A DNA stretch of 64,000 nt from assembly GCA_050257855.1 (NCBI GenBank), contig JBLMXQ010000133.1, forward strand, positions 51,651-115,650. Reading direction: 5' to 3'. Position 1 is the stretch's first letter. Each line of letters opens with the position of its first letter. Of this stretch, positions 24,056-51,423 are shown one piece after another. A model generated the notes under the pieces. That model did no database searches and had not been told where the DNA came from. It saw only the letters and a list, made by a program, of their open reading frames with translations. This DNA comes from Betaproteobacteria bacterium (GTDB lineage Bacteria; Acidobacteriota; Vicinamibacteria; Vicinamibacterales; CAVVIG01). The position numbers and the translations under genes are program-made.

Positions 24056-24070
24056 TGGCACTGCAGTTGC
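24056..24070 (+). promoter_or_regulatory. Sigma-54 promoter (TGGCAC-tgcag-TTGC), full consensus
   Basis: Exact TGGCAC-N5-TTGC. The -12 C lies 32 nt before ATG 24102, and GGGAGG (24091-24096) lies in between. Confidence 0.65.
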
Positions 24071-24101
24071 GAATCAGGAACATGGGATCCGGGAGGTCAA
24101 C

Positions 24102-24560
24102 ATGATTGTCAAGGAGCTGATGAACACGCGCGTGGCGACCTGTCCGGCCGACGGCGATCTTGCCTCGGCTGTCGCCACGATGCACGATCGGGGCTGTGGC
24201 TTCCTGCCGGTGGTCGACGCGAATGCCACCCTCGTGGGAGTCGTCACCGACCGGGACATCTGCATGGCGGTCGGGATCAGCCACCGGGCGCTCGATCGCA
24301 TTTCGGTCAAAGAGGCGATGTCTCACCCGGTGTTCTCGTGCGTGGCGGACGAGAACGTCAAGACCGCGCTCGTGACCATGGCGAACCACCACGTCAGGCG
24401 GCTGCCGGTCATCAACCGGAGCGGCCATCTCGAAGGAGTACTGTCATTCGACGACGTCGTCCAGGCTCCGCACCGGCGCGGATCTCCCACTGCCGACGAC
24501 ATCGTGGACGCGCTGAGGCGCATCTGCAGTCGCAGGCCGATCGAGGCTGTCACGGCGTAG
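24102..24560 (+). CDS. CBS-pair domain protein
   Basis: Two CBS repeats: VKELMNTRVATCPADGDLASAVATMHDRGCGFLPVVD...LVGVVTDRDI and VKEAMSHPVFSCVADENVKTALVTMANHHVRRLPVIN...LEGVLSFDDV. Confidence 0.85.
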   Translation: MIVKELMNTRVATCPADGDLASAVATMHDRGCGFLPVVDANATLVGVVTDRDICMAVGISHRALDRISVKEAMSHPVFSCVADENVKTALVTMANHHVRRLPVINRSGHLEGVLSFDDVVQAPHRRGSPTADDIVDALRRICSRRPIEAVTA

Positions 24561-24569
24561 GCGATGCGG

Positions 24570-24857
24570 CTATGCCCGGGGCGCCGCGCGCTCCCGGCTC
24601 TCGCGGGTGCCGGATGGCAGCTTCGAGGCCAGGTACGCGACGGCGCCGTCGAGCGTGTACAGGCGGGCGTAGTCGGCTTCTGGGATGTCCACGCCGAGCC
24701 GCTCGTGCAGCGCGACAACGAAATTGAGGAAGTCCATCGAGTCGAGATCGAGCTGCTCGCGGAGCATCGTCCCGGCCTCAATCGACGCTGGCTCCACCTC
24801 GGGCGCTATCCGCGTGAGCGCCTCGAGGACCACGCTCCTGATCTCGTCCGCCGTCAT
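24570..24857 (-). CDS. Acyl/peptidyl carrier protein (ACP-like, 95 aa)
   Basis: LREQLDLDSMDFLNFVVALHERLGVDIPEADY is a DSx phosphopantetheine-serine helix-II pattern. The ATG overlaps the E2 stop (ATGA at 24854-24857). Confidence 0.75.
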   Translation of the reverse strand: MTADEIRSVVLEALTRIAPEVEPASIEAGTMLREQLDLDSMDFLNFVVALHERLGVDIPEADYARLYTLDGAVAYLASKLPSGTRESRERAAPRA

Positions 24858-26020
24858 AGCCGCTCCGGCTTCTGCAGCCAGCCGTCGACGGCCGTGAGAA
24901 ACGTGCCGCCGCGGTGGCCGTCGCTCGCCCGATGGTCGGCCGAGAGCGTCGCCGTCAGCAGCGGCCGCGCCTCGATGCCGCGCGGTCCGGCCCAGGGACG
25001 CGCCGAGATCTTCCCGAACCCGACGATCGCGACCTGTGGCGGGTAGATGATGCCGAACGCCGCCTCGACGCCCTGATCGCCGAGGTTCGTCACCGTGATC
25101 GTCGGATCCGAGAGCTCCGAGCTTCGGAGCGATCCGGCGCGCGCGCGGCTGACGAGATCGTGCAGCTTCCGCATCAGCGTCGTCAGATCCAGCGTGTTCG
25201 CGTCGTGCAACGCGGGCGCGACCAGGCCGCCGCCGCGAAGGGAGATGGCGCATCCGACGTGGATGCCGGCGCCCTTGCGGAACGCGCCGTCGATCCAGTA
25301 GCCGTTCAAATCGGGCACGTCACGCAGCGCCAGCGCGACCGATTTGATCAGCAGGGCTGTCGGGAGAAGACGATCGGCCATCGGCCGCTTCTCGTTCTCG
25401 GCGCGTAGCCAGGCGAGCGCCACGCTCATGTCGACCGTCGTCGACAGGTAGTAGTGCGGGATCTCACGTTTCGACCGCGCCATGGCGGCTGCGATTGCGG
25501 TCCGCATCTGAGCGGCGCGATCGGGTGCCGCCGGGGCCCGGCCCGGCGGCGTCCGCGATGCCGCAGCGGCTCGCTCGACGTCCGCGCTCGTGATCGCGCT
25601 CTGCGTGCCCGTGCCCGCCACCTGCGCCAGATCGACGCCGCGCTCCGCCGCGATCCGGCGCGCGAGCGGCGAGACGCGCACGCGGCCGCCCTCGGGCGGC
25701 CCCGCGACCATGGGCTCCGGGCCCGCGACCGTCGGCTGTGGCCCCGCGACCGTCGGCGGCGATGGAGCGGCGGGTTCCCGCGACTCCGGACCCCGGATCA
25801 CGGCCAGCACGGCTCCGACCGGCACTTTCTCGCCCGGCTGAACGACGGTGTGATCGAGCACGCCATCCTCGAACACTTCGATCTCGATGGCGCCCTTCTG
25901 AGTGTCGACGACGGCGATGATGTCGCCCCGCGCGAGGCGGTCGCCGGGCTGCTTCAGCCATTGGACCAGCGTGCCGGCTTCCATGTCCGCACCGAGCGCC
26001 GGCATCCGGAATTCACTCAT
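24854..26020 (-). CDS. 2-oxoacid dehydrogenase E2 (dihydrolipoamide acyltransferase): lipoyl + PSBD + catalytic domains
   Basis: Lipoyl domain ...[27 protein letters not shown]-repeat linker. [27 protein letters not shown]. Catalytic ...[18 protein letters not shown]. Confidence 0.9.
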
Positions 26021-26992
26021 GGCGACCCGCCACTTCGCGCGCCGCCGCTGCGATCGTCGCGGGCTGGGGGAGTGCGGCCTCCTCGAGATGCCGGGGATAC
26101 GGGATTGGCACCTCGGCGCTGCAGACGCGGGCGATCGGCGCGTCGAGGTCGTAGAATGCCTGTTCCACGAGGCGAGCGACGATCTCCGCCGACAGGCTGC
26201 CGCTCTTCCAGCCTTCGTCGATCACGACCGCACGGTGCGTCTTCCGGACCGAGGCCGCCACCGTCGGCATGTCGAGCGGACGCAGGCAGCGGAGGTCGAT
26301 CACCTCCGCGTCGATGCCGTCCGCGGCGAGGCTCTCGGCCGCCTGAAGCGTCTTGCCGAGCGTGCCGCCGTAGGTGACCAGCGTCACGTGTCGGCCCTCC
26401 CGCCGCACGGCCGCGCGATCGATGTCCACCGGGCCCGCATCGTCAGCGAGCTGGCCCTCCACGTTGTACAGCGCCTGGTGCTCGAAGATCAGAACCGGGT
26501 CGGGGTCTTCGAGCGCCGTCCACAGCATGCCGCGCGCATCCTCGAGGGTGGCGGGCGCGAGGATCCGGAGTCCGGGGATGTGCGCGTACCAGCCTTCCAG
26601 GCTGTGCGCGTGCTGTGCGGCGAGCTGCCGTCCGGCGCCGGTGGCCATGCGGATGACGAGCGGGATGTTGAACTGCCCGCCCGACATGTGGCGGATGGTC
26701 GCCGCATTGTTGACGATCTGATCGAGCGCCAGGAAGCTGAAGTTGACCGTCATCACCTCGACGATCGGCCGCATGCCGCCGAGCGCCGCGCCGATGCCGG
26801 CGCCGACGAACGTCGATTCCGAGAGCGGCGTGTCGCGGATGCGCTCGGGGCCGAACTCGGCGAGCAACCCCTTGCTCACAGCGTAGGTTCCACCGTACTT
26901 GCCCACGTCCTCGCCCATCAGGAACACGCGCGCGTCCTTCGCGAGCGCCTCCCGATGGGCGGCGCGCACGGCCTCGCGATACGTGGTCGTGG

Positions 26993-26996
<4 letters not shown>
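26013..26996 (-). CDS. 2-oxoacid (pyruvate/acetoin-type) dehydrogenase E1 beta subunit
   Basis: GTG 26996 ([10 protein letters not shown]). [20 protein letters not shown] ... [29 protein letters not shown] ... It overlaps the E1alpha stop and the E2 start. Confidence 0.9.
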
Positions 26997-32122
<5,126 letters not shown>

Positions 32123-32131
32123 GAGATCGCC

Positions 32132-33847
32132 ATGGAGAACATCGAAATCGCCAGGACGTTCGACGAGGTCGCCGACCTGCTCGAGATCCAGGGCGCCAAT
32201 CCGTTTCGCGTGCGCGCGTATCGGAACGCGGCGCGAACGGTCGGGACGCTCGGAACGCCGGTCGCGACGATCCTCGAGAACGACGGCCACGCGCTCGAGG
32301 AGCTCCCCGGCATCGGGGCCGACCTCGCCGGCAAGATCGAGAAGATGTGCCGGACGGGCGATCTGCCGCTGCTGTCGCAGCTCACGCGCAAGACCCCCGA
32401 GGGCGTCGTAGCCATGCTGCGTATTCCGGGCGTCGGCCCCAAGCGCGCGATGCTGATCTACCGCAAGCTCGGCGTGAAGACGCTGCCGCAGCTCGAGAAG
32501 GCCGCGCGCGCCGGCCGCCTCGCGCGCGTCCGCGGTCTGGGCAAGGCACTCGAGCGCAGCATCCTGCGCGGCATCGCTCAGGACAAGGCGCACGTCGCAC
32601 GGATGCCGCTGGCCGAGGCCGAGGCATTCATCCGGCCGCTCATCGCGATGCTGCAGGCGGCGCCGGGCGTGAAGCAGCTCAGCGTCGCGGGCAGCCTCAG
32701 GCGCCGGCGCGAGACGGTCGGCGACGTCGACCTCCTGGCCGCGTCGGCCGACGCCTCCCCCGTCGCCGACGTGTTTCTCGCGTACGCGGATGTGAAGCAG
32801 GTGCTCGCGCGTGGCGGCACGAAGTGCTCGGTCGTCCTTCGCTCGGGGCTCCAGGTCGACCTGCGGATCGTGCCGGAGGCCTCCTACGGCGCCGCGCTCC
32901 ATTACTTCACCGGCTCGAAGGCGCACAACATCGCGATCCGTCTGCTTGGCGTGAAGGGACACCTGAAGATCAACGAGTACGGCGTGTTCCGCGGCACGCG
33001 GCGCGTGGGCGGCCGCCTCGAGACCGAGGTGTTCGAAGCCGTCGGCCTGCCGTGGATTCCGCCCGAGTTGCGCGAGAACCAGGGCGAGATCGAGGCCGCG
33101 CGCGAAGGCCGGCTTCCACGCCTCGTCGAGATCGGACAGATCCGCGGCGATCTGCAGATGCATACCGACGCGACCGACGGGAAGAACACGCTGGCCGAGA
33201 TGGTCGCCGCAGCGCGCACCCGGGGCTACGAGTACGTAGCGATCACAGATCACACGAAGGCGGTCCGTGTGGCGGGCGGCATGTCGAAGGCGGGGTTCCA
33301 CAGGCAGTCGCGCGCCATCGACGCGCTTCGGAAGCGGGCGTCCAGCCCTGTCGTCCTCAAGGGCGCCGAGGTCGACATCCTCGAGGATGGCTCGCTCGAT
33401 CTGGACGACGACACGCTGGCCGAATTCGACGTCGTGATTGCCGCGGTCCACTCGCGCTTCAACATGACGAAGTCGGCGATGACGCGGCGCATCGTCCGGG
33501 CCCTGCGGCATCCGCGCGTCCACGTCCTCGGCCATCCCACCGGCCGCCTTCTCGGACGGCGCGAGCCGTATCCGATCGACATGGGGGAGATCATCAAGGT
33601 CGCGCGCGACCACGGCGTCCTGCTCGAGATCAACGCCCAGCCGGACCGGCTCGATCTGAACGACCTTCACATTCAGATGGCGCGGGAGGCAGGGGTGAAG
33701 CTGGTCGTGAACACGGACGCGCACCGGATTCAGGAGCTCGATTACATGCGGTACGGCGTCGACCAGGCGCGGCGCGGCTGGTGCGAAGCCAGCGACATCG
33801 CGAACACCTGCCGCGCGGACGCCCTGCGAAAACTGATCGCGAAGTGA
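32132..33847 (+). CDS. polX: Family X DNA polymerase with C-terminal PHP domain (PolX)
   Basis: N-terminal HhH (GANPFRVRAYRNAAR). Palm GSLRRRRETVGDVDLL. PHP: DLQMHTDATDG ... YVAITDHT ... HVLGHPTGR ... LEINAQPDRLD. It starts 9 nt after the ligA stop. Confidence 0.92.
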   Translation: MENIEIARTFDEVADLLEIQGANPFRVRAYRNAARTVGTLGTPVATILENDGHALEELPGIGADLAGKIEKMCRTGDLPLLSQLTRKTPEGVVAMLRIPGVGPKRAMLIYRKLGVKTLPQLEKAARAGRLARVRGLGKALERSILRGIAQDKAHVARMPLAEAEAFIRPLIAMLQAAPGVKQLSVAGSLRRRRETVGDVDLLAASADASPVADVFLAYADVKQVLARGGTKCSVVLRSGLQVDLRIVPEASYGAALHYFTGSKAHNIAIRLLGVKGHLKINEYGVFRGTRRVGGRLETEVFEAVGLPWIPPELRENQGEIEAAREGRLPRLVEIGQIRGDLQMHTDATDGKNTLAEMVAAARTRGYEYVAITDHTKAVRVAGGMSKAGFHRQSRAIDALRKRASSPVVLKGAEVDILEDGSLDLDDDTLAEFDVVIAAVHSRFNMTKSAMTRRIVRALRHPRVHVLGHPTGRLLGRREPYPIDMGEIIKVARDHGVLLEINAQPDRLDLNDLHIQMAREAGVKLVVNTDAHRIQELDYMRYGVDQARRGWCEASDIANTCRADALRKLIAK

Positions 33848-33860
33848 GCACGCCAAAATA

Positions 33861-33878
33861 TTGACGGCTTTCCGTCAA
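33861..33878 (+). terminator. Perfect hairpin TTGACGG-cttt-CCGTCAA just after the polX stop
   Basis: 7-bp stem with a 4-nt loop, 14 nt downstream of the stop, inside an AT-richer patch (ccaaaatatt). There is no U-tract, so it could equally be an operator. Confidence 0.35.
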
Positions 33879-33935
33879 GCTTGGCGACAACTCGTCAGCA
33901 AGGGCGTTCTTTGCCCATGATCATCGGCGGCCGGG

Positions 33936-33950
33936 CGGCACGTGGCTTGC
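33936..33950 (+). promoter_or_regulatory. Sigma-54-type promoter (cGGCAC-gtggc-TTGC) upstream of the tandem USP gene
   Basis: GGCAC-N5-TTGC. The -12 C lies 38 nt before ATG 33988, with GGGGAGG in between. Confidence 0.55.
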
Positions 33951-33987
33951 GCTCCTATTGCCTGACGGGGGGCGTGGGGAGGTTGTC

Positions 33988-34881: not shown

Positions 34882-35032
34882 CTAGCCAGCAGCCTGCCCG
34901 CGCGCGCAGGCCCGTTCGCGCGCGCGGGTGACAAGTCGCGGCTCACGTCTCGTGGCCGCACCTCACGCAGAGGCAGGATGCCGGGATATCGCTGCCGGAT
35001 AACCGGCACCGCGCCGGGATCCGAATGACCGG

Positions 35033-35878: not shown

Positions 35879-36040
35879 CGTCTCCTCGACAGCCAGCCGA
35901 CGCAAGCGCGATACCGCCTCGGCGGGGCGCCGGCGGGGCCATACGCCCGGAGTCTCAGCAGGGTCCTTGCAACGGTCACCCTCGAACGGCGGCAGTGTGC
36001 CGGTGTCCCGGCGCGGCCGCGTGTCAATGGAGGAGCTGCC

Positions 36041-38595: not shown

Positions 38596-38713
38596 CGGTG
38601 AGCCATGGCGACCGGGCCCTGAGGCGCGGCAACGCCGGAGTCGACGCCGTGGCGCTGTCAGGTTGCCGTGCAGTGTGCGAGTGAAAGGTGTAGCAGGGGC
38701 CTACGCGCGTGAC

Positions 38714-39544: not shown

Positions 39545-39576
39545 GGTCCCTTTTTGGCACAAGCCGGAGGAGACGC

Positions 39577-39942: not shown

Positions 39943-40034
39943 CGCGGTCCGTTCCCCGGGCGTCCGAGACTGGGCGATACTGAGGGAGGCGCGGGCGGGT
40001 GCCTCAGCCGCAGCGGTCGGCGACCGGCTGCGAT

Positions 40035-40049
40035 CGGCACGCTCATTGC
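40035..40049 (+). promoter_or_regulatory. Sigma-54-type promoter (cGGCAC-gctca-TTGC) abutting the cfa start
   Basis: GGCAC-N5-TTGC. The -12 C is at 40049, only 14 nt before ATG 40063. This would imply a nearly leaderless mRNA and argues against GTG 40054 as the start. Confidence 0.45.
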
Positions 40050-40053
40050 GCTC

Positions 40054-41283: not shown

Positions 41284-41298
41284 CACGCTGCGTGGCGT

Positions 41299-42063
41299 TC
41301 AACCGCCGGTTCCTTCCGCGTCGGCCCGCGCCGCTTCGAGCGCCCGCGTGAGCCGCCGCCAGTGGGAGCCCTGCCAGTAGACCCGTCCGCAGGCGGCGCA
41401 GCGGCGGAACCGATCGTAGTACGCGCGGGTGCGCGGCAGCAGCGCGGCGTCCACTTCGGCCTTCGGGACGTCGCGCAGCACCCCGTTGCATCGGGTGCAG
41501 CGCGAGAACGGCCGAATCGGCAGCGGACCGAACCGGCGCAACACCTCCACGAGCTGATCGTGCGGCCGGGTCGCGCGGAGGAAGCAGCCGTGCGCGACGA
41601 TGCTGCGCTTGAGGAGCGCCTGGTCGCGCGTGAGCAGGACCCGCTGTTCCCGCGCCGAGATCTGCGCCAGGTCCGCGTCGCCGGCGTCGTTGCGGTAGGC
41701 GGTGTCGAACCCGGCCAGACGCAGCCGCCTGGCCAGCGCGCCGAGGTGAACGTCGGCCACGAACCGGATTGGCTCTGGCGGCGTGACGCGCACGCGGCTC
41801 AGCGCATCGATGTCGAGCGAGACGAATCGTGGAAATACCGCGATGCGATCGCCGGACCGCACGACGTAATCGAACCGGACCGGCGATCCGTCCACGAGGA
41901 CGAGGTCGATTTCGGGATGCGGGACGCCGATCGCTTCGACGACGTCCTTCACGGCAGCGCGCCTTTTGAGGACGATCCGCCCTGTCACCTGCCGCCGCGC
42001 CGGCGTAAGGAAGTCGTTGAGCGGGCCGTAGATTCTGACGGTGACTTCGAGCATCTGAAGCAA
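41299..42063 (-). CDS. Mut7-C-type RNase (PIN-like) domain protein with N-terminal ubiquitin-like domain and C-terminal Zn ribbon
   Basis: N-terminus: VTVRIYGPLNDFL...VKDVVEAIGVPHPEIDLVLVDG...GDRIAVFP (beta-grasp-like). Then FVADVHLGALARRLRLAGFD...LLTRD. Then CTRCNGVL...CAACGRVYWQGSHW. Confidence 0.7.
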   Translation of the reverse strand: MLQMLEVTVRIYGPLNDFLTPARRQVTGRIVLKRRAAVKDVVEAIGVPHPEIDLVLVDGSPVRFDYVVRSGDRIAVFPRFVSLDIDALSRVRVTPPEPIRFVADVHLGALARRLRLAGFDTAYRNDAGDADLAQISAREQRVLLTRDQALLKRSIVAHGCFLRATRPHDQLVEVLRRFGPLPIRPFSRCTRCNGVLRDVPKAEVDAALLPRTRAYYDRFRRCAACGRVYWQGSHWRRLTRALEAARADAEGTGG

Positions 42064-42121: not shown

Positions 42122-43789
42122 GTGGCTGCGATGCGACGGAGCGGGGGCGGCGCCGACCCGCAGTGGTACAAGGACGCGGTCATCTACGAGCTTCCCGTCA
42201 AGTCCTTCTGCGACAGCAACGGCGACGGCATCGGCGACTTTCGTGGCCTCAGCGGCAAGCTCGACTACCTGCGCGACCTCGGCGTCACGTGCCTCTGGCT
42301 CCTCCCGTTCTTCCCCTCGCCGCTCAGAGACGACGGCTACGACATCGCCGACTACGTGGGCGTGCACCCGAGCTACGGCACGCTCGACGATTTCAAGCGG
42401 TTCCTCGACGACGCTCACGAACGCCATCTGCAGGTCGTCGTCGAGCTCGTGCTCAACCACACCTCCGACCAGCATCCGTGGTTCCAGCGCGCGCGGTCCT
42501 CGCCTCCAGGATCTGCCGAGCGCGACTACTACGTCTGGAGCGACACGGACCAGCGGTATCGCGATGCCCGCATCATCTTCCTCGATGCCGAACGCTCCAA
42601 CTGGACGTGGGACCAGGAGGCGCAGGCGTACTATTGGCACCGCTTCTTCCATCACCAGCCCGATCTCAACTACGACAACCCGGCCGTGGTCGCCGAGATG
42701 CTCGGCGTGCTCGATTTCTGGCTGGACCTCGGCGTCGACGGCTTCCGTCTGGACGCCGTGCCGTATCTGGTGGAGCGCGACGGCACCAGCTGCGAGAACC
42801 TGGCCGAGACGCACGTCCTGATCAAGGCGATCCGGCGGCATCTCGACGCGCGCAGTCCCGGACGACTCCTCCTGGCCGAAGCCAATCAGCCGCCGGCGGA
42901 AGTCCGCGCGTACTTCGGCGACGGCGACGAATGCCACATGGCCTATCACTTCCCGGCGATGCCGCGCATCTTCATGGCGCTGCACCTCGAGGACCGGGAG
43001 CCGATCGTCGACGTGATGGAGCGCACCCCGCCGATCCCGGAGAGCTGCCAGTGGGCACTCTTCCTGCGCAATCACGACGAGCTCACCCTCGAAATGGTGA
43101 CCGACGATGAACGCGACTACATGTATCTGGCGTACAGCCTCGATCCCCACGCGCGGCTGAACCTCGGGATCCGGCGCCGGCTGGCGCCCCTCGCCGGGAA
43201 CAGCCGGCGCCGGATCGAGCTGCTGAACGCGCTGCTGTTCTCGTTTCCGGGCACGCCGATCATCTACTACGGCGACGAGATCGGGATGGGCGACAATCTG
43301 TATCTCGGCGATCGCAATGGCGTCCGCACCCCCATGCAGTGGACGAGCGATCGCAACGCCGGCTTCTCCCGCGCAGACCCGGAGCGGCTGTACAGTCCCG
43401 TGATCATGGACGCCGTGTACGGCTATCAGGCCATCAACGTCGAAGCGCAGGACAGCGACAGCGCGTCGCTGCTGCACTGGATGCGGAACATGATCCGGCT
43501 CCGGCGGATGTTCAAGGTGTTCGGCCGCGGCACGATCGAGTTCCTGCAGCCGGCGAACCGCAAGGTGCTGTCCTACATCCGCCGGTTCGGCGACGACGTC
43601 ATCCTGTGCGTCGCGAATCTTTCGCGGTGGGCGCAGCCCGCGGAGCTCGACCTGCGCGCGTTCGCCGGATCGACGCCGGTCGAGATGCTCGGGTACACCG
43701 AGTTTCCCCCGATTGGCGAGCTGCCGTACTTCCTGACGCTTGGGCCGTATGGTTTCTACTGGTTCGAACTCCAGCGCCCCCGCGCCTGA
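42122..43789 (+). CDS. treS: Trehalose synthase (maltose alpha-D-glucosyltransferase), GH13
   Basis: [29 protein letters not shown] ... [10 protein letters not shown] ... LLAEANQ ... [22 protein letters not shown] ... [13 protein letters not shown]. There is no fused maltokinase domain. Confidence 0.93.
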
Positions 43790-45017
43790 GGCCCCGGCCG
43801 CGCGCGCCGACCTGGTCGTCGCGGTGATGACCCTCGACGACGCCCGGACGATCGGTGCGGTGCTGCGCGCGGCGATGGACGCCTTTGCGCGGCAGTTCAG
43901 CTCACAAGAGGCGCGCATCCTGATGGCCGACGCGCGGTCGACCGACGGGACGCGCCAGGTGGCGCGCGACGCGGCCGGTGCCGCACTCGTGGAAGTGGAG
44001 TATCCGGTGCCGGCGACGCTGCCCGAGATGCCGTATCACGGGCATCCGGGCAGAGCCGGCGCGCTGAGGGCGATTCTGCAGGCGGCCTTCGCTCTGGGCG
44101 CCCGGGCGTGCGCGGTCGTCGATGCCCGGCTGGACGCGCCGACGCCGGAGCGGATCGAGCGGCTGATCGGTCCCGTGCTCGCCGACGGCTTCGACTACGT
44201 GTCGCCGTACTACACCCGCCGGGCGCACGAAGGCGCCATCACCAAGGGCATCGTGTACCCGATGTTCCGCGCGCTCTACGGCGTCCGCCTGCGGCAGCCG
44301 GTCGCCGGCGAGTTCGGCTGCTCGGCGCGCGCGATGGCGCACTATCTGGAACAGGACTTCTGGGACGTCGAGCACGCGCAGTCGGGCATCGACCTGTGGC
44401 TCGCGGTCGAGGCCGCCTGCAGCGCGTTTCGAGTCTGCGAGGCGCCACTGGGAGCGTACCGGACCACGGCGCGCGATGCCGGGGTCGACATGAGCACGAC
44501 GCTCGCCCAGATCGTCGGAGCGCTGTTCGCCGATCTCGAGTACCGCGTGGACTTCTGGCAGCGCTGCCGCGGATCGGTGCCGGTCCCGGTCGTGGGGACG
44601 GCGCCGGCCGCAGCCGGCGAGGAGTCGCCGGTGCCGGTGGACGGCCTGATCGACTCGTTCCGGCTCGGCTACCGGGAACTGCACGCGATCTGGACGTCCG
44701 TGCTGCCGCCCCGAACGATTCTGGATCTGCGGCGGCTCACCGACGCGCCGCTCGAGCGCTTCCGGTTTCCCGATCGGCTCTGGGCCGGCATCGTGTACGA
44801 CTTCGCGCTCGGGTACGGGTTGCGCGTCATGCCGCGCGATCACCTGCTGCGATCGCTGGCGCCGCTCTACAGCGGCTGGCTGGCGTCGTTCGTCCTCGAG
44901 ACCGGTGGCGCCGCGCGCTTCCGGGTCGAGGAGCGCGTCGAGCAGATCGGCGTCGCGTTCGAGGCGGAGAAGCGGCAGCTCATCTCGGGCTGGCGCTGGC
45001 CGGAGCGTCCGAGATAG
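43749..45017 (+). CDS. GT-A-fold glycosyltransferase-like protein (possibly a glycosyl-glycerate-type compatible-solute synthase)
   Basis: [19 protein letters not shown] ... [12 protein letters not shown] ... [10 protein letters not shown] (DxD-like) ... The start (ATG 43749 or TTG 43740) overlaps the treS 3' end. The specific activity is only a guess from the treS context. Confidence 0.5.
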
Positions 45018-45046
45018 ATTCACGGGTCGCGCGGGAGGGAGCAGCC

Positions 45047-45745
45047 ATGTGGGAACAGGTTGACCTGATTCTGCGGCAGGCGATGCGTCAGATTGCCGAC
45101 AACGTCGCGAACTTCCTGCCAGGCGTGCTGGTGGCGCTGTTCCTGGTCCTGGTGACCTTCGTCGTGGCGACGCTGGTGCGTGTGATCATCGTGCGTGCGC
45201 TGCGCGGGCTCGAGCGGCGCGGCCGCGCGGACCCGTTCGGCTTCGCGGCGCTGGCCGGCTGGCCGCCGTCGGCCAACCCGCCGGTGACGGCCGGACGGAT
45301 CGCCTACTGGACCATCGTCGTGCTGGGCCTGCTGGCCAGCCTGACGGCGCTGAACGCGACGATTCCGTCGCGGCTCGCGCTGTCCGTGTTCGGCTACGTG
45401 CCGCATCTGCTGGCAGCGCTCGTCATCCTGATCGTCGGGGCCATCACGGCCCGGTTCCTCGCCCGTTCCGTGCTCATCGGCGCGGTGAACATGCACCTCC
45501 GATCGGCGCGCCTGCTGAGTCTCACGGTGAAGTGGCTGGTCCTGCTCGTCGCGGTGGCGATGGCGCTCGAGCACCTCGGCATCGGCCGGACGGTCCTCCT
45601 GCTCGCCTTCGGCATCATCTTCGGCGGGATCGTCTTCGCGGCCGCGCTGGCCGTCGGCCTCGGCGCGAGAGACGCGGTGGCGCGCGCGCTCGAGCGTCAG
45701 CTGCAGGAGCCGGCGCGCGACGGCGAGCCGATCGATCACGTGTAA
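45047..45745 (+). CDS. Multi-pass membrane protein with repeated conserved-TM-helix motif (MscS-associated type)
   Basis: Four to five hydrophobic helices with a repeated IxGAITARFLARSV / LLLAFGIIFGGIVFAAALAVGLGARD pattern. SD GGGAGGGAG lies upstream. Confidence 0.55.
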   Translation: MWEQVDLILRQAMRQIADNVANFLPGVLVALFLVLVTFVVATLVRVIIVRALRGLERRGRADPFGFAALAGWPPSANPPVTAGRIAYWTIVVLGLLASLTALNATIPSRLALSVFGYVPHLLAALVILIVGAITARFLARSVLIGAVNMHLRSARLLSLTVKWLVLLVAVAMALEHLGIGRTVLLLAFGIIFGGIVFAAALAVGLGARDAVARALERQLQEPARDGEPIDHV

Positions 45746-47472
45746 TCGGCGACCGCCGTCATGCCGCGCTCCCCGAGCGCGCGCAGCACGTCCGACTTCG
45801 TCACGACGCCCTCGAGGGTTCCGGCCGCCGACGTCACGAACAGCAGGTGATGGCCCCGCTGGTCCATCAGCAGCCTGAGCACTTCCATCAGATCGCAGTC
45901 GGGCGGCACGTGGGGCACCGAGCGATCGGCCAGCGAGCCGGCCGTCGTCTCGCTCCAGCGGTCGGACGGGAGCCGGGCGAGGGCCTGTGTGGCGAGCACT
46001 CCGATGGGATGACGCCCGTCGAACACCGGATAGACCGTGTGCGCGTGGCGCGATCCGAAGCTGCTGGCGAACTCGCGGAGCGAGGCCGACGCCGGGACCG
46101 AGACGACGTTCCGCTGCATCACCTCGCTGACCGGAACGTGGCGGAGGCCGGCCACCTTGACGGTCTCGTGGAGCCGCTGGTCGCCCGACACCGACGCCTC
46201 CCCGGAAACCGCGTAGGCCACTGCGGCGCCGATGAGCGTCGGAATGATGTAGGCGTGGCCGCCGGTCGCCTCGGCGACGAAGACGACCGCGGTCAGCGGC
46301 GTCTTGTAGCAGCCGGCGATGAACGCGGCCATGCCGACCGCGGCGTACAGGTCCACGACGGGACTGCCGACGACCGATTGCGCGAACGCCACACCGAACG
46401 TGCCGCCGGCCAGGAAGATCGGCACGAACATCGCGCTCACGCCGCCCGCGCCGAGCGAGGCGATCGTCGCGGCCAGCTTGAACACGCCGAACGCCACGAG
46501 CTCCACGGTTCCGTGCGCCTTCAGCAGGATGTCCGGGACCGCCTCGTAGTTGGGGCCAATCGGCACGAGGGGGCCGGGGAAGAGCCGCAGGAACACCAGA
46601 CCGCACACGCCGGTCAGGGCGCCGCCGACCGCCATCTTGAGCCAGTGCGGCGCCGACTGGCGGACGGCGAACGAGCGCGCGCGGCGGAACGTGATGGCGA
46701 ACACCATGGCGACGAGCCCGCAGACGACGCCGAGCAGCGCCGACCAGACGAGGTCGCGTCCGCTGAAGGTCTCGCCGGCGAGGAAGTTGAACACCGGCTG
46801 CGCGCCGAGGAACGACGCCAGCGTCACGTAGGCGACGACCGACGCGATGAGCGAGGGCAGCAGGGCTTCGTGCGCGAGGTCGTCCTTGTACGGCATCTCG
46901 AGCGCGAAGACGAGACCGGTGAGCGGCGCCCGGAACACGGCCGCCATGCCCGCCGCGGCGCCGCTGATGAGCATGATGCGCCGATCGCGCGGCTCGAGCC
47001 GGAAACGCCGCAGGCGCGCCCACAGCCAGGAGCCGAGGGCGCCGCCGCCGTAGATGCTCGGTCCCTCGAGCGCCGCGCTCCCGCCGAGGCCGACGGTCGC
47101 GACCGCCGCCACCAGCTTCGGCACGAACGGCCTCATCTGCACGTGCCCCTGGTGCTCGTGGTAGGAGCGGATGATCTCCTCGGTCGAGTGCTCGTCCGGG
47201 TCCGGCGTCGCGTACTGCATGATGAGCCCGGCGACGACGAACCCGGCCGTGAGGCCCGGGACGATGACGATCGGATGCGCCAGGTAGTACCGCAGCACGG
47301 GCGGCCACATCCAGTAGAGGATCACCTTCGCGATGAGCGTGATGACGAGGCCGGTGACACCCCCGATGATCGGTGCGACGATCAGCCACTTGTGCAGGTC
47401 GCGTGAATAGGTCGCGGAGAGATCTTCGTGGATGAGCGCGGTGTACTTCCGGAGGCGCTGATGGGCGGACAT
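45736..47472 (-). CDS. ClC-family chloride/proton channel with C-terminal CBS pair
   Basis: GLGGSAALEGPSIYGG (GSGIPE-like) ... GVSAMFVPIFLAGGTFG ... then two CBS-like repeats. The start is ATG 47472 (the alternative TTG 47487 lies inside an AT palindrome). Confidence 0.85.
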   Translation of the reverse strand: MSAHQRLRKYTALIHEDLSATYSRDLHKWLIVAPIIGGVTGLVITLIAKVILYWMWPPVLRYYLAHPIVIVPGLTAGFVVAGLIMQYATPDPDEHSTEEIIRSYHEHQGHVQMRPFVPKLVAAVATVGLGGSAALEGPSIYGGGALGSWLWARLRRFRLEPRDRRIMLISGAAAGMAAVFRAPLTGLVFALEMPYKDDLAHEALLPSLIASVVAYVTLASFLGAQPVFNFLAGETFSGRDLVWSALLGVVCGLVAMVFAITFRRARSFAVRQSAPHWLKMAVGGALTGVCGLVFLRLFPGPLVPIGPNYEAVPDILLKAHGTVELVAFGVFKLAATIASLGAGGVSAMFVPIFLAGGTFGVAFAQSVVGSPVVDLYAAVGMAAFIAGCYKTPLTAVVFVAEATGGHAYIIPTLIGAAVAYAVSGEASVSGDQRLHETVKVAGLRHVPVSEVMQRNVVSVPASASLREFASSFGSRHAHTVYPVFDGRHPIGVLATQALARLPSDRWSETTAGSLADRSVPHVPPDCDLMEVLRLLMDQRGHHLLFVTSAAGTLEGVVTKSDVLRALGERGMTAVADYT

Positions 47473-47485
47473 CTGAACGGACTTC

Positions 47486-47509
47486 AATTATATAGGAGTC
47501 CATATAATT
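47486..47509. promoter_or_regulatory. AT-rich perfect inverted repeat AATTATAT-N8-ATATAATT at the ClC gene 5' end
   Basis: Read directly. On the minus strand it contains TATAAT (47492-47487), 14 nt before ATG 47472. Confidence 0.4.
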
Positions 47510-47545
47510 CTCCGAAGGACGCCGGGCGTTCGAGGAGGGGAGCGG

Positions 47546-47569
47546 CGGGCGCCCCGGTCGGGGCGCCCG
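47546..47569 (-). terminator. GC-rich hairpin (GGGCGCCCC-ggtc-GGGGCGCCC) downstream of the DUF302 gene
   Basis: 9-10 bp perfect stem, 9 nt after the stop at 47578. The U-tract is weak. Confidence 0.4.
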
Positions 47570-47577
47570 ACCGGACG

Positions 47578-47988
47578 TCACCTGGCCGATTCGAGGGCCG
47601 TGAGCGCGCGGCGGAGCTTGCTGTCGGCCTCCTGCGCGACCGCCTGCAGTTCGGCGTTCGGACCGACCGTGCCGAGCGCGGCGAGCGGCGCGATGGCCGC
47701 GACGACGCTCTTGCCGGCCCCGTCCTCGTAGACCACGACGTTGCAGGGCAGCAGCAGCCCGATCTCGAGTTCCGCGTGCAGCGCGCGGTCGGCGAGCGGC
47801 GGGTTGCACGCGCCGAGGATGACGTATTTCCGGAACGTGCGATCGAGCTTCGTTTTGAGCGTCTGCTGCACGTCGATGGTCGTCAGGACGCCGAAGCCTT
47901 CTGCCTTGAGCGCGTCGGTCGCCCGCTGGAGGGCCGTGTCGAACGGGACCGAAAGGGAGACGCGCAGTCCGTATTTCGATTCGTGCAT
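47578..47988 (-). CDS. DUF302 domain protein
   Basis: ALKAEGFGVLTTIDVQQTLKTKL...YVILGACNPPLA...LLLPCNVVVYE is the DUF302 pattern. Confidence 0.75.
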   Translation of the reverse strand: MHESKYGLRVSLSVPFDTALQRATDALKAEGFGVLTTIDVQQTLKTKLDRTFRKYVILGACNPPLADRALHAELEIGLLLPCNVVVYEDGAGKSVVAAIAPLAALGTVGPNAELQAVAQEADSKLRRALTALESAR

Positions 47989-48127
47989 GGATTCACCTCG
48001 TCATGATGTCGTCACACCTCAATTGTCGGACGAAACGCGGCGGAGCCGCCCCGAAATGGTGAGCGGATCGGCACGGCGGCGTGCAGCAGTGCTTCGTTGG
48101 CCTCTTCCTGCAAACTGATCCATAATC

Positions 48128-48574
48128 ATGGCGCGCATGCGACGGATTCTCTTCGCGTCGGATTTCTCGCCGGCTTCACGCCGGGCCTTTGCCACGGCCC
48201 TGCGGATGGCGCGCGCGAACCGCGCGAAGCTGAGTGTGCTTCACGTGATCACGCCGATTGCCGCGATCCCGACCGACCCGGCCGCGCCCGTGACGCTGTG
48301 GCAGGAGATCGAGCGGAGCACGCGCGCGTGGGCGACGGGGCAGGTCAAGCGGCTGGTTGCGCGCGCCCGGAAGGCCGGTGTCCGGGCCGAAGGGCTCCTG
48401 CGCGAGGGCGCGCCGGCCGAGACCGTCGTCCGCACGGCCCGATCCACGCGGGCCGACCTCATCGTCATCGGCACGCACGGGCGTACCGGGCTGTCGCGGA
48501 TGTTCGTCGGCAGCGTCGCCGCACGCGTGGTGGCGACCGCGCCGTGTCCTGTGGTCACAGTCCGCGGCCGGTAG
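48128..48574 (+). CDS. Universal stress protein (single UspA domain)
   Basis: ILFASDFSPASRRAF ... ADLIVIGTHGRTGLSRMFVGSVAARVVATAPCPVVTV. Confidence 0.88.
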   Translation: MARMRRILFASDFSPASRRAFATALRMARANRAKLSVLHVITPIAAIPTDPAAPVTLWQEIERSTRAWATGQVKRLVARARKAGVRAEGLLREGAPAETVVRTARSTRADLIVIGTHGRTGLSRMFVGSVAARVVATAPCPVVTVRGR

Positions 48575-48583
48575 GGGCCCGGG

Positions 48584-48613
48584 TTTCGAGCGGCGTCCGA
48601 TCCCGCCTATAAT
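48584..48613 (+). promoter_or_regulatory. Sigma-70-type promoter candidate for phoD (TTTCGA-N18-TATAAT)
   Basis: Perfect TATAAT at 48608-48613, 27 nt before ATG 48641. A CCTCGC/GCGAGG hairpin lies in the leader. Confidence 0.4.
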
Positions 48614-48640
48614 CGCCTCGCATTCATCCGCGAGGTCCGC

Positions 48641-50206
48641 ATGTCCCCGACGCTCTCGCACTGGTACGAGTTGTACGGACGACACATCAGCCGGCGCGAT
48701 TTCCTGCGCGTCGGCCGCGACGTGGCTGGCCTGCTCGCGCTGGCATCGCTGCCGGGGGACGCCGTCGCCGAGGCGCGCGCCACCGCGAACCCGTTCACGC
48801 TCGGCGTCGCGTCGGGCGATCCGGTCCCGGACGGCGTGGTGCTGTGGACGCGGCTCGACGCCGGCGCAATCGGCCATGTCACGGCGACGTCGGTCCAGTG
48901 GGAGGTGGCCACGGACGATCGCTTCCGGCGGATCGTGCGCCGCGGATCGAGGGTTGCGCCGGCTGCGCTCGGATATTCGGTCCACGCAGAGGTCGACCGG
49001 CTCGAGCCGGGCCGCGAGTACTGGTACCGCTTCATGACGGGCGGCCAGGTCAGCGCCGTCGCACGGACCAGGACGGCGCCTCCCGCAGACGCCTCGAATG
49101 ACCGCGTGAGGTTCGCGTTCATCTCGTGCCAGAACTACGAGCACGGGTACTACACGGCGTTCCGCCACCTCGCCGAGGAGCCCGTGGACGCCATCGTCCA
49201 TCTTGGCGACTACATCTACGAGAAGCGGTTCGCGTCGGCGCCCGCGGTGCGCGAGCACGAGGCCGGCGAGGTGTTCACGCTCGATCAGTACCGGGCGCGC
49301 TATGCGCTGTATCGCGCCGACCCCGATCTGCAGGCGGCCCACTCGGTGTGTCCGTGGATCGTGACGAACGACGATCACGAGGTCGCCAACAACTGGGCCG
49401 GGCCGTTCGCGGAGGACACGTCGGTGCCGCAGGACCAGTTCCTCCTGCGGCGCGCCGCTGCGTTCCAGGCGTACTACGAGTTCATGCCGCTGCGGCGCAC
49501 GTCGCTGCCGCACGGGCCGTGGATGCAGATCTACCGCCGGCTGGAGTTCGGCCGGCTCCTGCGGTTCCACGTGCTCGACACGCGGCAGTTCCGGTCGGAC
49601 CAGGCGTGCGGCGACGGCAGCAAGCCGCGGTGCGCGGACGTCTTCGACTCGAAGCGGACGATGATGGGGCCGGAGCAGGAGCGATGGCTGGCCGAGGGGC
49701 TGCGCCGGTCGCCGGCGCGGTGGAACGTGCTCGCCAATCAAGTGATGATCGCGCAGACGAAGAGGCTGGCCAGGGGCGAACCGGTGTTCTCGATGGACAA
49801 GTGGGACGGCTACGTGCCGGCGCGGGACCGCCTGATGACGCTGCTCGGCGACCCGCGCGTCTCGAACCCGGTCGTCGTCACGGGCGACATCCACACGAAC
49901 TGGGTCGCGGATCTGAAGATGGACTATGACGACGCGAAATCGGCCGTCGTCGGCGCGGAGTTCGTGGGGACGTCGATGACGTCCGGCGGCGACGGCACCG
50001 ACGCGGACACCAGCCGTGTGCAGGCGCTCAACCCGCACGTGAAGTTCTTCAACGCGCGCCGCGGTTACGTGACCGTCGACGTGACGCCGTCACGGTGCAC
50101 CAGCACGTATCGCTGCGTCCCGTACGTCAGCCGCCCCGGCGCGCCGATCGAGACAAGCGGCACGTTCGTGGTCGAGGACGGCCGGCGCGGCGTGCAGGCG
50201 GGCTGA
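48641..50206 (+). CDS. phoD: Alkaline phosphatase D family (PhoD) with Tat signal
   Basis: SRRDFLRVG twin-arginine motif. FTLGVASGDP ... FISCQNYEHGYY ... VHLGDYIYE ... VTNDDHEVANNW ... GDIHTNWV. Confidence 0.9.
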   Translation: MSPTLSHWYELYGRHISRRDFLRVGRDVAGLLALASLPGDAVAEARATANPFTLGVASGDPVPDGVVLWTRLDAGAIGHVTATSVQWEVATDDRFRRIVRRGSRVAPAALGYSVHAEVDRLEPGREYWYRFMTGGQVSAVARTRTAPPADASNDRVRFAFISCQNYEHGYYTAFRHLAEEPVDAIVHLGDYIYEKRFASAPAVREHEAGEVFTLDQYRARYALYRADPDLQAAHSVCPWIVTNDDHEVANNWAGPFAEDTSVPQDQFLLRRAAAFQAYYEFMPLRRTSLPHGPWMQIYRRLEFGRLLRFHVLDTRQFRSDQACGDGSKPRCADVFDSKRTMMGPEQERWLAEGLRRSPARWNVLANQVMIAQTKRLARGEPVFSMDKWDGYVPARDRLMTLLGDPRVSNPVVVTGDIHTNWVADLKMDYDDAKSAVVGAEFVGTSMTSGGDGTDADTSRVQALNPHVKFFNARRGYVTVDVTPSRCTSTYRCVPYVSRPGAPIETSGTFVVEDGRRGVQAG

Positions 50207-50215
50207 GGCTCCTGG

Positions 50216-51304
50216 TCACTTCCTGACGTATTTCTTGACGTCCTTCTGGCCGACTTCCGCGCCGTAGATGTTGCCTGCCGGATCGACCGCGATGCCCTCG
50301 GCGGAACTCGTGCCGGTCGCGTGCGCGACCGGGTCCGGGATGAAATACTTCACCGAGCCGTCCTTCGCGCTGCCGATGCGAATTCCGCGCTTCCAGCCGT
50401 CATGGTTCTTCGACACCGATTCGGATTCCGAGTCGGCCACGTAGATCGTGTCGTCCCCGGTGATGACGATGCCGCTCGGTCGGCTGAACTGCTTCCATTC
50501 GGTGATGTAGTTCCCGTCCTGATCGAAGATCTGAATCCGGTTGTTGCTGCGGTCCCCGACGAACAGACGTCCTTCCGCGTCGAGTGCGAGCGTGTGCGGC
50601 TGATCGAACTCGCCGGGACCCGTGCCGCGCTTGCCCCAGCTCTTGATCAGCTTGCCGTCCTTCGAGAACTTGAAGATCCGGTCGACCGGCGCGCCGTGCC
50701 CCTGCGCGACGAAGATGTTCCCGTCCGGCGCCACGAGGACGGCGTTCGGCTGGTAGAAGAAGTCCGGCGCCGCGGCGCCGCCCTTCCTGCCGAGCGTCAT
50801 CAGCAGCTTGCCGTCGGGGCTGAACTTGAAGATCTGGTGACCGCGGGTAGCGCCGGGCCGTGGAATCACCGGGGCTCCCGGGGCCTGCCCCCTCTGCGGG
50901 CGCGGGGCATCGTCCTGGTCGTCGGTCACCCAGACGTTGCCGTCGGGATCGACGTCGATGCCGTGCGGGAAGACGAAGAGGCCCGCGCCGAAGGCCTTCA
51001 CGAGCTGGCCTGAGGGATCGAACTTCAGCACGACCGGCAGGTCCGAGTGCAGGCAGCTGTTCGCGCCGCAGCGCTCGGCGACCCAGATGCTGCGGCCGTC
51101 CTTGTCGATTGCGACGGCGCTGGTCGATCCCCACGTGCGGCCGGGCGGCATCTGGAGGAAGTTCTCGACCGTCCGGTACGGGTTCGGCAGGTCATTCGTC
51201 GGCTTGACGGCGTCGCCCTGTGCCCAGGCCGTCACGCCGATCAAGACGAGCGCCGCCGCCGTGCGAATGCTCACCGCCCGCAGATCCGCTCGACCTCGTG
51301 CCAT
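50216..51304 (-). CDS. Secreted NHL-repeat beta-propeller protein (peptidyl-alpha-hydroxyglycine lyase-like)
   Basis: A signal peptide is followed by repeated xxPHGIDVDPDGNVWVTD / PNAVLVAPDGNIFVA / PHTLALDAEGRLFVGD / PSGIVITGDDTIYVAD / AEGIAVDPAGNIYGAE blades. Confidence 0.75.
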   Translation of the reverse strand: MARGRADLRAVSIRTAAALVLIGVTAWAQGDAVKPTNDLPNPYRTVENFLQMPPGRTWGSTSAVAIDKDGRSIWVAERCGANSCLHSDLPVVLKFDPSGQLVKAFGAGLFVFPHGIDVDPDGNVWVTDDQDDAPRPQRGQAPGAPVIPRPGATRGHQIFKFSPDGKLLMTLGRKGGAAAPDFFYQPNAVLVAPDGNIFVAQGHGAPVDRIFKFSKDGKLIKSWGKRGTGPGEFDQPHTLALDAEGRLFVGDRSNNRIQIFDQDGNYITEWKQFSRPSGIVITGDDTIYVADSESESVSKNHDGWKRGIRIGSAKDGSVKYFIPDPVAHATGTSSAEGIAVDPAGNIYGAEVGQKDVKKYVRK

Positions 51305-51408
51305 CGTGTCTCCCTCCAGGACCCGGGGAGTATATCAACGGCGCCGGAAATCCGGCATCGGACTCTCGTCAGTCAGTGCCTGACGGCCCAAGGGCGCGTC
51401 CCGTACGG

Positions 51409-51423
51409 TGGCAGGCCGGTTGC
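51409..51423 (+). promoter_or_regulatory. Sigma-54-type promoter (TGGCAG-gccgg-TTGCA) upstream of the LolA-like/ABC operon
   Basis: TGGCAg-N5-TTGCA. The -12 C lies 27 nt before ATG 51450. Confidence 0.55.

Follow-up and report, generated by a model that had tools for sequence, protein, structure and literature searches.

Predicted sigma-54-type promoters with a common upstream palindrome suggest a stress and dormancy regulon in Vicinamibacterales-like DNA

In the 64,000-nt single-contig stretch analysed here (contig JBLMXQ010000133.1; hereafter the window), 12-13 GGCAC-N5-TTGC-like elements of the -24/-12 type were found by a weighted scan, and about eight of them appear to share a palindromic enhancer, (T)GCCGGAAATCCGGC(A), upstream. 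On the strength of these sequences, we consider it likely that one NtrC-type activator, together with sigma-54 (RpoN), drives a dormancy and low-oxygen regulon through the shared palindrome. Genes were mapped by codon statistics and checked with Pfam; 9% of the window is intergenic by this map, and the computed GC content of 0.67-0.73 agrees with the estimate of about 35% each for G and C given in an earlier note on this DNA. Because every close relative, in genome collections, of a protein encoded in the window, a fusion of HPF with a cold-shock domain (HPF-CSD), comes from Acidobacteriota, mostly Vicinamibacterales, the DNA is treated as that of an uncultured, Vicinamibacterales-like acidobacterium of soil. 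The label 'Betaproteobacteria bacterium' of the source metagenome-assembled genome (MAG), under which the exact HPF-CSD protein is recorded, is probably wrong, and the placement of two related contigs labelled Bifidobacteriaceae (L015 and L060) looks equally wrong.

The earlier note had tabulated five such elements and mentioned two weaker ones, expecting GGCAC-N5-TTGC less than once by chance. The five were found at the coordinates it gave and the weaker two at 21486 (plus strand) and 23930-23945 (minus strand), while each tabulated distance to a start codon proved one too high (recounted from TTGC, or from TTGCA at 51409, to the start: 31, 37, 32, 13 and 26 nt). The exact motif occurs four times (24057, 33937, 39531 and 40036), always on the plus strand, in intergenic DNA and oriented toward a start codon, compared with an expectation from shuffles of 0.45, below one as had been estimated; none of 100 dinucleotide-preserving shuffles reached four. 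The weighted scan, with TGGCACG-N4-TTGCW as its model, yielded sites with the consensus nGGCAC(G)-N4-TTGC(A/T/G), among them several absent from the earlier note: 17308-17323 (minus), 17378-17393 (plus), 29905-29920 (minus), 30023-30038 (plus), 38590-38605 (minus) and possibly 35901-35916 (minus). The top six weighted matches are all intergenic, each aimed at a start codon 3-61 nt off, and the sites as a set are strand-specific and lie 12-100 nt ahead of start codons (3-105 nt over the top matches). When each intergenic region was resampled under a first-order Markov model in 1000 runs, 1.3 upstream-sense matches were expected (maximum 7), compared with 12 observed.

These elements have the properties of sigma-54 type -24/-12 promoters. 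Their GG and GC doublets are exactly 10 bp apart, as the sigma-54 consensus TGGCACG-N4-TTGCW requires, and GGCAC-Nk-TTGC is enriched at k = 5 both in the window (four matches, compared with 0-1 at other spacings) and in 526 kb of related DNA (21, compared with 2-5). No -10-like or other conserved box was detected downstream of the motif in an alignment of 12 sites, and no sigma-70 consensus promoter was found in 21350-41300. Enrichment at N5 only, bias in strand and position, the missing -10 box and the conservation before orthologs described below all fit this class; the observation of the earlier note is thus confirmed, and its interpretation as sigma-54-type promoters is supported.

Conservation was examined in related loci, which are stretches centred on HPF-CSD homologs (labelled with L numbers). 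In 26 acidobacterial ones, with the window excluded and a motif score of at least 19, motif densities per kb were 0.77 (upstream-sense positions), 0.097 (remaining intergenic DNA) and 0.029 (coding DNA), so that the upstream-sense density is about 27 times that of coding and 8 times that of other intergenic DNA. Together with the intergenic location of the top six matches in the window, this answers the question whether the motif is equally frequent inside genes, which it is not. The motif is also conserved before orthologs in diverged relatives. The window, L004, L006, L008 and L009 have exactly the same HPF-CSD promoter 16-mer, TGGTGCATCGTTTGCA, while their HPF-CSD proteins are only 71-77% identical and the flanking DNA has diverged; the 16-mer keeps its position at the operon head even where other genes precede the HPF gene. 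The LigA-operon 16-mer keeps 15 of 16 positions in L004 and L011: the near-identical AGGCCGGAATCTTGCA heads a BON-YkuD-LigA-PolX operon in L004 and precedes a gene of similar size (218 aa) in L011. In L006, cfa and the HPF gene are transcribed divergently, and L009 shows the same arrangement with the gene that occupies the position of cfa. The families found behind the motif in relatives match those of the window and are HPF (5), CBS (4), phosphoribosyltransferase (4), AMP-binding (3), BON (3) and Hsp20 (2). As a separate observation, a gas-vesicle (gvp) cluster adjoins the HPF-CSD gene on the acidobacterial contig L003 (13551-20533) and includes a PAS hybrid kinase and a response regulator behind a -24/-12-type motif.

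The promoters of the window and the genes they face are as follows.

24056-24071, plus strand: CBS promoter TGGCACTGCAGTTGCG, 30 nt before the CBS-pair gene (24102-24560), with a GGGAGG Shine-Dalgarno sequence in between
23930-23945, minus strand: HPF-CSD promoter TGGTGCATCGTTTGCA, 86 nt before the start of the HPF-CSD fusion gene (23184-23843)
21486-21501, plus strand: weaker promoter TGGAACCATGATTGCG, 23 nt before a sigma-70-family gene (21525-23093) that scores under the RpoD equivalog cut-offs
33936-33951, plus strand: USP promoter CGGCACGTGGCTTGCG, 36 nt before the tandem USP gene (33988-34881)
39530-39545, plus strand: Cys-rich promoter CGGCACGACCGTTGCG, 31 nt before the gene of a Cys-rich 121-aa protein (39577-39942)
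40035-40050, plus strand: cfa promoter CGGCACGCTCATTGCG, before cfa (ATG 40063)
51409-51424, plus strand: LolA promoter TGGCAGGCCGGTTGCA, 25 nt before the LolA-like gene (51450-52199), which is followed by LolCE/FtsX-type permease genes
30023-30038, plus strand: LigA promoter AGGCCGAAATCTTGCA, 29 nt before LigA (30068-32122), which is followed by PolX (32132-33847)
29905-29920, minus strand: acyl-CoA synthetase promoter CGGCGCATCGCTTGCA, 51 nt before the gene (28063-29853)
38590-38605, minus strand: Hsp20 promoter TGGCTCACCGCTTGCA, 61 nt before Hsp20 (37962-38528)
17378-17393, plus strand: NAPRT promoter CGGCAGTCGCTTTGCA, 35 nt before the NAPRT-archease-like-RtcB-deacetylase operon (17429-21416)
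17308-17323, minus strand: PD40 promoter match AGGCAGCGCATTTGCA, of lower confidence, 105 nt before a PD40/peptidase-like gene (14143-17202)
35901-35916, minus strand: helix-hairpin-helix-gene promoter match CGGTATCGCGCTTGCG, of lower confidence, 22 nt before a 281-aa gene (35033-35878)

The operon of the acyl-CoA synthetase continues with a 2-oxoacid dehydrogenase E2 gene (24854-26020) and an ACP-like gene (24570-24857), and two uncharacterised genes between the synthetase and E2 (26013-28012) may encode the E1 subunits. In front of cfa, 13 nt separate TTGC from ATG 40063 and only 4 nt separate it from an in-frame GTG at 40054; because the start codon is so close to the -12 TTGC, the cfa transcript would be leaderless or nearly so. 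The position of the cfa start is supported by alignment with an ortholog, and read-through from the promoter of the Cys-rich gene is an alternative for its expression. The HPF protein of the window consists of an S30AE/HPF domain and a C-terminal cold-shock domain, which replaces the usual dimerisation domain of long HPF; this family counts 2409 database proteins of about 218 aa, mostly from soil metagenomes, with best matches 70-78% identical. The archease-like protein of the NAPRT operon has 144 aa and its deacetylase is of the polysaccharide type, and the presence in the same window of a nicotinamidase gene (38714-39250) and the NAD-dependent LigA hints at a theme of NAD salvage. The 281-aa helix-hairpin-helix-like protein (minus strand), judged by eye, recalls the N-terminal part of PolX.

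The upstream palindrome was revealed by aligning the divergent regions between HPF and CBS genes. At up to two mismatches, (T)GCCGGAAATCCGGC(A), of 14-16 bp, occurs seven times in the window compared with 0.15 expected, each time in intergenic DNA, and with weaker copies included it lies 46-70 nt upstream of eight promoter 16-mers. The spacers between palindrome and 16-mer are 46 nt (CBS), 50 nt (HPF-CSD), 51 nt (sigma-70-family gene), 52 nt (LolA-like operon), 59 nt (tandem USP), 62 nt (Cys-rich), 69 nt (acyl-CoA synthetase) and 70 nt (LigA). The copies of the window near promoters are the following.

23996-24009, minus strand: palindrome GCCGGAAATTCGTC, two mismatches, common to the divergent HPF (50 nt) and CBS (46 nt) promoters
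24042-24055: second, weaker copy between HPF and CBS
21421-21434, plus strand: palindrome ACCGGAAAACCGGC, two mismatches, 51 nt upstream of the promoter of the sigma-70-family gene
33861-33878, no strand: perfect 18-bp palindrome TTGACGGCTTTCCGTCAA, 59 nt upstream of the USP promoter; a variant of the enhancer with three mismatches in the 14-mer, one symmetric pair of changes among them
39454-39467, no strand: exact palindrome GCCGGATTTCCGGC, 62 nt upstream of the promoter of the Cys-rich gene
51343-51356, no strand: exact palindrome GCCGGAAATCCGGC, 52 nt upstream of the LolA-operon promoter
29939-29952, no strand: palindrome GCCGGAAGTCCGGC, one mismatch, 70 nt from the LigA promoter
29990-30003: weaker copy, 69 nt from the acyl-CoA synthetase promoter
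17224-17237: variant GCCGGGTTTCCGTC, 140 nt upstream of the NAPRT promoter
35999-36012: weak palindrome, 82 nt upstream of the promoter match at 35901-35916

In L006, L008, L009 and L010, the palindrome is conserved at the HPF/CBS position; the GCCGGGTTTCCGTC variant was also found in L015 and, close to the NAPRT gene, in L004, and the GGTATC promoter variant, as at 35901-35916, is paired with palindromes twice in L003. In close relatives generally, the palindrome is intergenic and paired with a -24/-12 box, whereas most of its matches in non-acidobacterial loci are in coding sequence, the distribution expected by chance. We considered the palindrome as a terminator hairpin and rejected this, since it stands upstream of promoters, often in divergent gaps, and carries no T-runs; the USP variant was flagged as a terminator, but on the wrong strand.

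The spacing between the two elements was studied in metagenome contigs of JGI, where a scan for GCCGGAWWTCCGGC-N{38,68}-GGCAC-N5-TTGC returned at least 120 stretches (0.70 Mb) holding such a pair, here called a composite; the counts given for composites below hold among the matches listed, and those on spacing refer to 108 cases left after removal of duplicates. The spacers cluster at 40-41, 50-53 and 60-63 nt with strong periodicity (Rayleigh R = 0.60 at 10.5-11 bp, p about 1e-17), and 81 of the 108 fall in 10 of the 31 allowed lengths. This puts the centre of the palindrome near -74, -84 and -95 from the predicted start, a series continued by the cases at 69-70 nt in the window (about -104). 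Maxima of A/T content 8, 18 and 28 nt ahead of the promoter 16-mer give the spacer the pattern typical of phased DNA with an intrinsic bend, and the palindrome extends to cTGCCGGAAATCCGGCAg. A second palindrome-like site was present in only 15 of the 108 cases, and no other conserved block that might be a second enhancer was found upstream in them.

Composites stand before orthologs of the window's genes on unrelated contigs, namely CBS orthologs (68% identity) in L156 and L204, a cfa ortholog (67%) in L147, a Cys-rich ortholog (49%) in L120, and USP orthologs likewise. The other genes behind composites encode a GlutR_dimer-like small protein (8), multihaem cytochromes (5-6), pyruvate:ferredoxin oxidoreductase (3), FeoB (3), HypF (3), a FixI-type P-ATPase (3), cytochrome c (3) and BON (2), an anaerobic and redox gene set suggesting that the likely signal is oxygen, redox or energy limitation. 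The proposal of the earlier note, a sigma-54 regulon of stress and envelope functions, is therefore strengthened by the shared palindrome, while the set itself is wider than stress and envelope: DNA repair, ribosome hibernation and a sigma-70-family gene also belong to it, as do anaerobic and redox genes in relatives. In the predicted 5' leader directly downstream of the L152 composite at 6591-6659 (minus strand), a unit of about 10 nt, GCAACTCGAA, is repeated in tandem some five times, with GCAACTCAAA as the form of the final copies.

Genes of enhancer-binding proteins were found in 25 of the 120 composite stretches (0.70 Mb), compared with 6 of 80 HPF-centred control loci (1.45 Mb), an approximately 10-fold enrichment. 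Three types, A, B and C, all occur near composites; the commonest, type A, has REC, Sigma54_activat (PF00158), AAA lid and HTH_8 domains (L202:8152-9513). Its orthologs, at 75% identity or more, were present in 11 composite stretches and those of type B in 9. Seven stretches have the type A gene on the strand of a composite and 1.5-3.5 kb downstream of it, which makes it probable that the regulator's operon carries one. In L202 and L208 the operon consists of a small protein, other genes, a REC protein and regulator A, often followed by NifU with the REC-less regulator B and by a PAS hybrid kinase, an order that fits an autoregulated operon. In L208, a Vicinamibacterales stretch, composites precede a tandem-USP operon and a cytochrome bc-type operon, and a -24/-12 box, preceded by CCGGAAA-type sites, belongs to the regulator operon itself. 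Regulator A is highly conserved, with 83-88% identity to the query in over 120 clusters, whose members named at NCBI are Vicinamibacterales or Acidobacteria, typically 'sigma-54 dependent transcriptional regulator [Vicinamibacterales bacterium]'; regulators with a sigma-54 interaction domain are thus named from Vicinamibacterales MAGs. The nearest solved relatives of regulator A by sequence are Aquifex NtrC4 and NtrC1. The first genes behind regulator-operon composites encode small conserved proteins of unassigned function, among them one of 64-79 aa (MLDRQKLEALLSKRF...) in L208 (9199-9393), L140, L182 and L185; in L095, L202 and others, a GlutR_dimer-like protein of 78-86 aa is followed by an amine-oxidase (protoporphyrinogen-oxidase-like) gene.

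Based on these data, we propose the following course of activation. Sigma-54 holoenzyme would sit on the -24/-12 box as a closed complex, and a dimer of regulator A, encoded elsewhere in the genome, would bind the palindrome (predicted site TGCCGGAAATCCGGCA), the REC-less AAA+-HTH_8 regulator B being the alternative. The PAS-domain hybrid histidine kinase of the same gene cluster may phosphorylate the regulator, which would then oligomerise, and the short bent spacer could bring its ATPase to the closed complex. The shared site is within 70-150 bp of the predicted start, as NtrC-family regulons require, at eight promoters of the window, the spacing is phased across the 108 composites, and palindrome centres about 74, 84, 95 or 104 bp from the start would lie on the same face of the helix. 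ATP would be used for opening, with a predicted start about 11-12 nt past TTGC, which would give the CBS, USP and Cys-rich genes leaders of 15-25 nt with a visible Shine-Dalgarno sequence. The predicted targets in the window are HPF-CSD, the CBS-pair protein, the tandem USP, the Cys-rich protein, the sigma-70-family factor, LigA-PolX, acyl-CoA synthetase/2-oxoacid dehydrogenase and LolA-like/ABC, and in related DNA pyruvate:ferredoxin oxidoreductase, HypF, FeoB, the FixI-type ATPase, multihaem cytochromes and the regulator's own operon. Control of a sigma-70-family factor by sigma-54 would make this a cascade. Taken together, the targets in the window resemble a maintenance programme of ribosome hibernation, nucleotide-binding stress proteins, DNA repair, acyl-lipid metabolism and envelope transport. 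The gene content points to oxygen, redox or energy limitation as the probable signal; this is the weakest step of the proposal. Hsp20, cfa and PD40 probably answer to other activators, as does, again probably, NAPRT-RtcB.

A number of observations weigh against a single NtrC-type activator acting through the palindrome. Most of the promoters have a single 14-bp site, and many NtrC-type enhancers comprise two or three. No palindrome was found upstream of the Hsp20, cfa and PD40 promoters (for cfa, none within 200 nt), the one at the NAPRT promoter is 140 nt away and off-phase, and the 46-nt spacing at CBS is off-phase too. One further copy, GCCGGATAACCGGC (two mismatches, 34994-35007), has no promoter in its vicinity; it falls in the gap where the USP gene and a minus-strand gene converge. 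In the composites both motifs were imposed by the scan pattern, leaving spacing, A/T phasing and gene content as the independent results. As the earlier note had said, the window encodes no enhancer-binding protein, none having been found by Pfam scans of called genes or six-frame motif searches. Regulator A is taken as the likely palindrome binder from linkage alone, and linkage cannot tell it from regulator B, whose gene adjoins its own. Furthermore, GAFTGA is the loop that contacts sigma-54, and the regulator A genes of L095, L141, L151, L178, L186 and L202 have GAFTDA in its place, while the orthologs in L101, L140 and P0193 retain GAFTGA. Searches for rpoN by RpoN-box patterns and by tblastn with an E. 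coli RpoN sequence were empty across the window and 2.2 Mb of further loci, a result uninformative on the source genome, for which we infer the presence of rpoN indirectly, from the sigma-54 interaction-domain regulators named in Vicinamibacterales MAGs.

The alternative that fares best, although we regard it as unlikely, accepts the sigma-54 promoters and assigns the palindrome to a regulator of the CRP/FNR family, another dimeric regulator or an architectural factor, with the ATPase bound elsewhere or acting from solution. The 5-N4-5 layout of the palindrome is indeed like that of FNR boxes, the site is usually single, and helix-phased positions are typical of class I CRP-type activation as well; in L209 the type A regulator has a CRP/FNR-family gene as its neighbour, and L003 has an HTH_Crp_2 fragment near its HPF gene. 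However, a CRP-like gene was linked to only 2 of the 120 composite stretches, compared with the 11 and 9 for regulators A and B, the sequence of the palindrome is unlike FNR and CRP boxes, no FNR box occurs at these promoters, and the composites conserve no alternative enhancer motif that the ATPase might use.

Less plausible in our view, and improbable as a whole, is the absence of any single regulon, that is, a plain class of sigma-54 promoters served by separate activators, with a palindrome incidental to a few. The lack of a palindrome at the usual distance from Hsp20, cfa, PD40 and NAPRT would suit such a class, as would the several types of enhancer-binding protein near composites, but the palindrome is phased before 7-8 promoters of the window and at least 120 in metagenomes, and it is conserved before the same genes across genomes.

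That the GG-N10-GC elements are not sigma-54 promoters at all but sites of another sigma factor or regulator, or 5'-leader elements, with the real promoter just past the palindrome, seems very improbable. It draws on the fact that rpoN is not demonstrated, on the poor knowledge of acidobacterial sigma-70 promoters and on the 40-nt spacer class, in which a regulator centred at -41.5 would put the start near the GGCAC box. Against it are the exact canonical consensus enriched only at N5, the strong linkage of sigma-54 activator genes to the sites, and the absence of a -10-like element in the spacers or downstream, of a sigma-70 consensus promoter in the region and of any Rfam match; Rfam and tRNA scans of the whole window gave zero matches and hence no known RNA element. 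Finally, an origin of the motifs as a chance or compositional artefact of GC-rich DNA, to which the loose 16-mer at two mismatches might point (21 in the whole window compared with 15.4 in shuffles, not enriched), is refuted by enrichment, strand and position bias, conservation and spacing periodicity, and we give it practically no credence.

Some neighbouring sequences of the window stand apart from the regulon. A string GCAGGGTCCTTGCA at 35958-35971, before groEL, recurs as GAGCAGGGTCCTTGCA in L012, about 56 nt upstream of the HPF-CSD gene; it departs from the GG-N10-GC frame and may represent a different type of promoter or operator. The long open reading frame at 35192-37669 (plus strand) is an artefact, GroEL homology beginning at about 36040, and no groES was found upstream of groEL in the window. 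At 42131-50206 lies a run of osmotic and dormancy-type genes without a sigma-54 motif, encoding an alpha-amylase-family (trehalose-synthase-like) protein, a glucosyl-3-phosphoglycerate-synthase-like protein, a small MscS-like channel, a ClC channel with CBS domains, DUF302, a single USP and PhoD.

In a wider reading, which we put forward tentatively and think slightly more apt to fail than to hold, the elements would represent a persistence and low-oxygen programme of Vicinamibacterales under one sigma-54-dependent master regulator, with a cis-code readable from metagenomes, a functional counterpart of DosR, a cascade from sigma-54 to a sigma-70-family factor, and a new hibernation factor of the HPF-cold-shock-domain type. 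Few soil bacteria are as abundant as the Vicinamibacterales, and few have been cultured so little. For this little-studied lineage, the analysis offers a testable regulatory code, composed of an enhancer sequence, helical spacing rules, an activator family and a predicted regulon, by which membership could be predicted from metagenomic DNA alone and soil metatranscriptomes from flooding, drying or anoxia could be read. It would also provide a DosR-like set of dormancy genes assembled under sigma-54 control, and a natural example of short-range, face-of-helix enhancer action with intrinsic bending.

A literature search returned no paper on an acidobacterial sigma-54 stress regulon and none on the palindrome as a bacterial site, and a 2011 comparative paper on sigma-54 does not mention Acidobacteria in its main text. 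Among known systems, E. coli sigma-54 and RtcR (CARF-AAA+) control rtcBA. The RtcB operon of the window similarly stands behind a -24/-12-type promoter (17378-17393), but has no adjacent RtcR gene, includes NAPRT, archease-like and deacetylase genes in addition, and has its palindrome 140 nt off. FNR/FixK regulators use a TTGAT-N4-ATCAA box at about -41.5 of sigma-70 promoters, and no such box was found in these intergenic regions. DosR (DevR) of Mycobacterium tuberculosis is a NarL/LuxR-type regulator acting on sigma-70-type promoters through a 20-bp palindromic box. In gene content the present set is strikingly close to its regulon, sharing tandem USPs, a CBS-pair protein, Hsp20/alpha-crystallin, an HPF-like factor and phosphoribosyltransferases, as well as a GC-rich palindrome with an A/T centre repeated before many operons; it differs in the sequence of the box, in its -24/-12 promoters and in the linked AAA+ regulators, so that the likeness is functional and not one of family membership.

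The nearest described regulon is that of NmpR in Myxococcus xanthus, a sigma-54-dependent regulon tied to oxygen limitation under an NtrC-like response regulator, which includes a CBS-domain gene, a USP gene and a P-type ATPase/cbb3 oxidase operon (PMC11841059). The regulator operon, NmpRSTU, is autoregulated and receives its input from a multi-kinase phosphorelay, and NmpR binds GCGCA-N5-TGCGC, usually at two sites 14-15 bp apart (PMC11841059). The two regulons would be alike in sigma-54, an NtrC-type regulator, the tie to oxygen limitation, the CBS, USP and P-type ATPase genes, autoregulation and kinase input. The present one belongs to another phylum and adds ribosome hibernation, DNA repair, a sigma-70-family gene and envelope transport, and the NmpR site occurs 14 times compared with 17.3 expected, in no case at the promoters.

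With NtrC/glnAp2-type systems, the promoters described here share the GG and GC doublets 10 bp apart, the consensus TGGCACG-N4-TTGCW and a palindromic enhancer upstream; the candidate activator from related DNA would match those systems as well, with REC, an AAA+ domain with GAFTGA and HTH_8, and a histidine kinase gene in its cluster. They differ in that the enhancer, GCCGGAAATCCGGC, is compact (14-16 bp), usually single and unusually close, placed at discrete helical steps with phased A/T tracts and no obvious IHF site, and in that the regulon concerns stress and dormancy, not nitrogen. The class of mechanism is the classical one of the textbooks, extended without a new principle, and what would be new is the regulon, the enhancer, the strict short-range phasing and the lineage.

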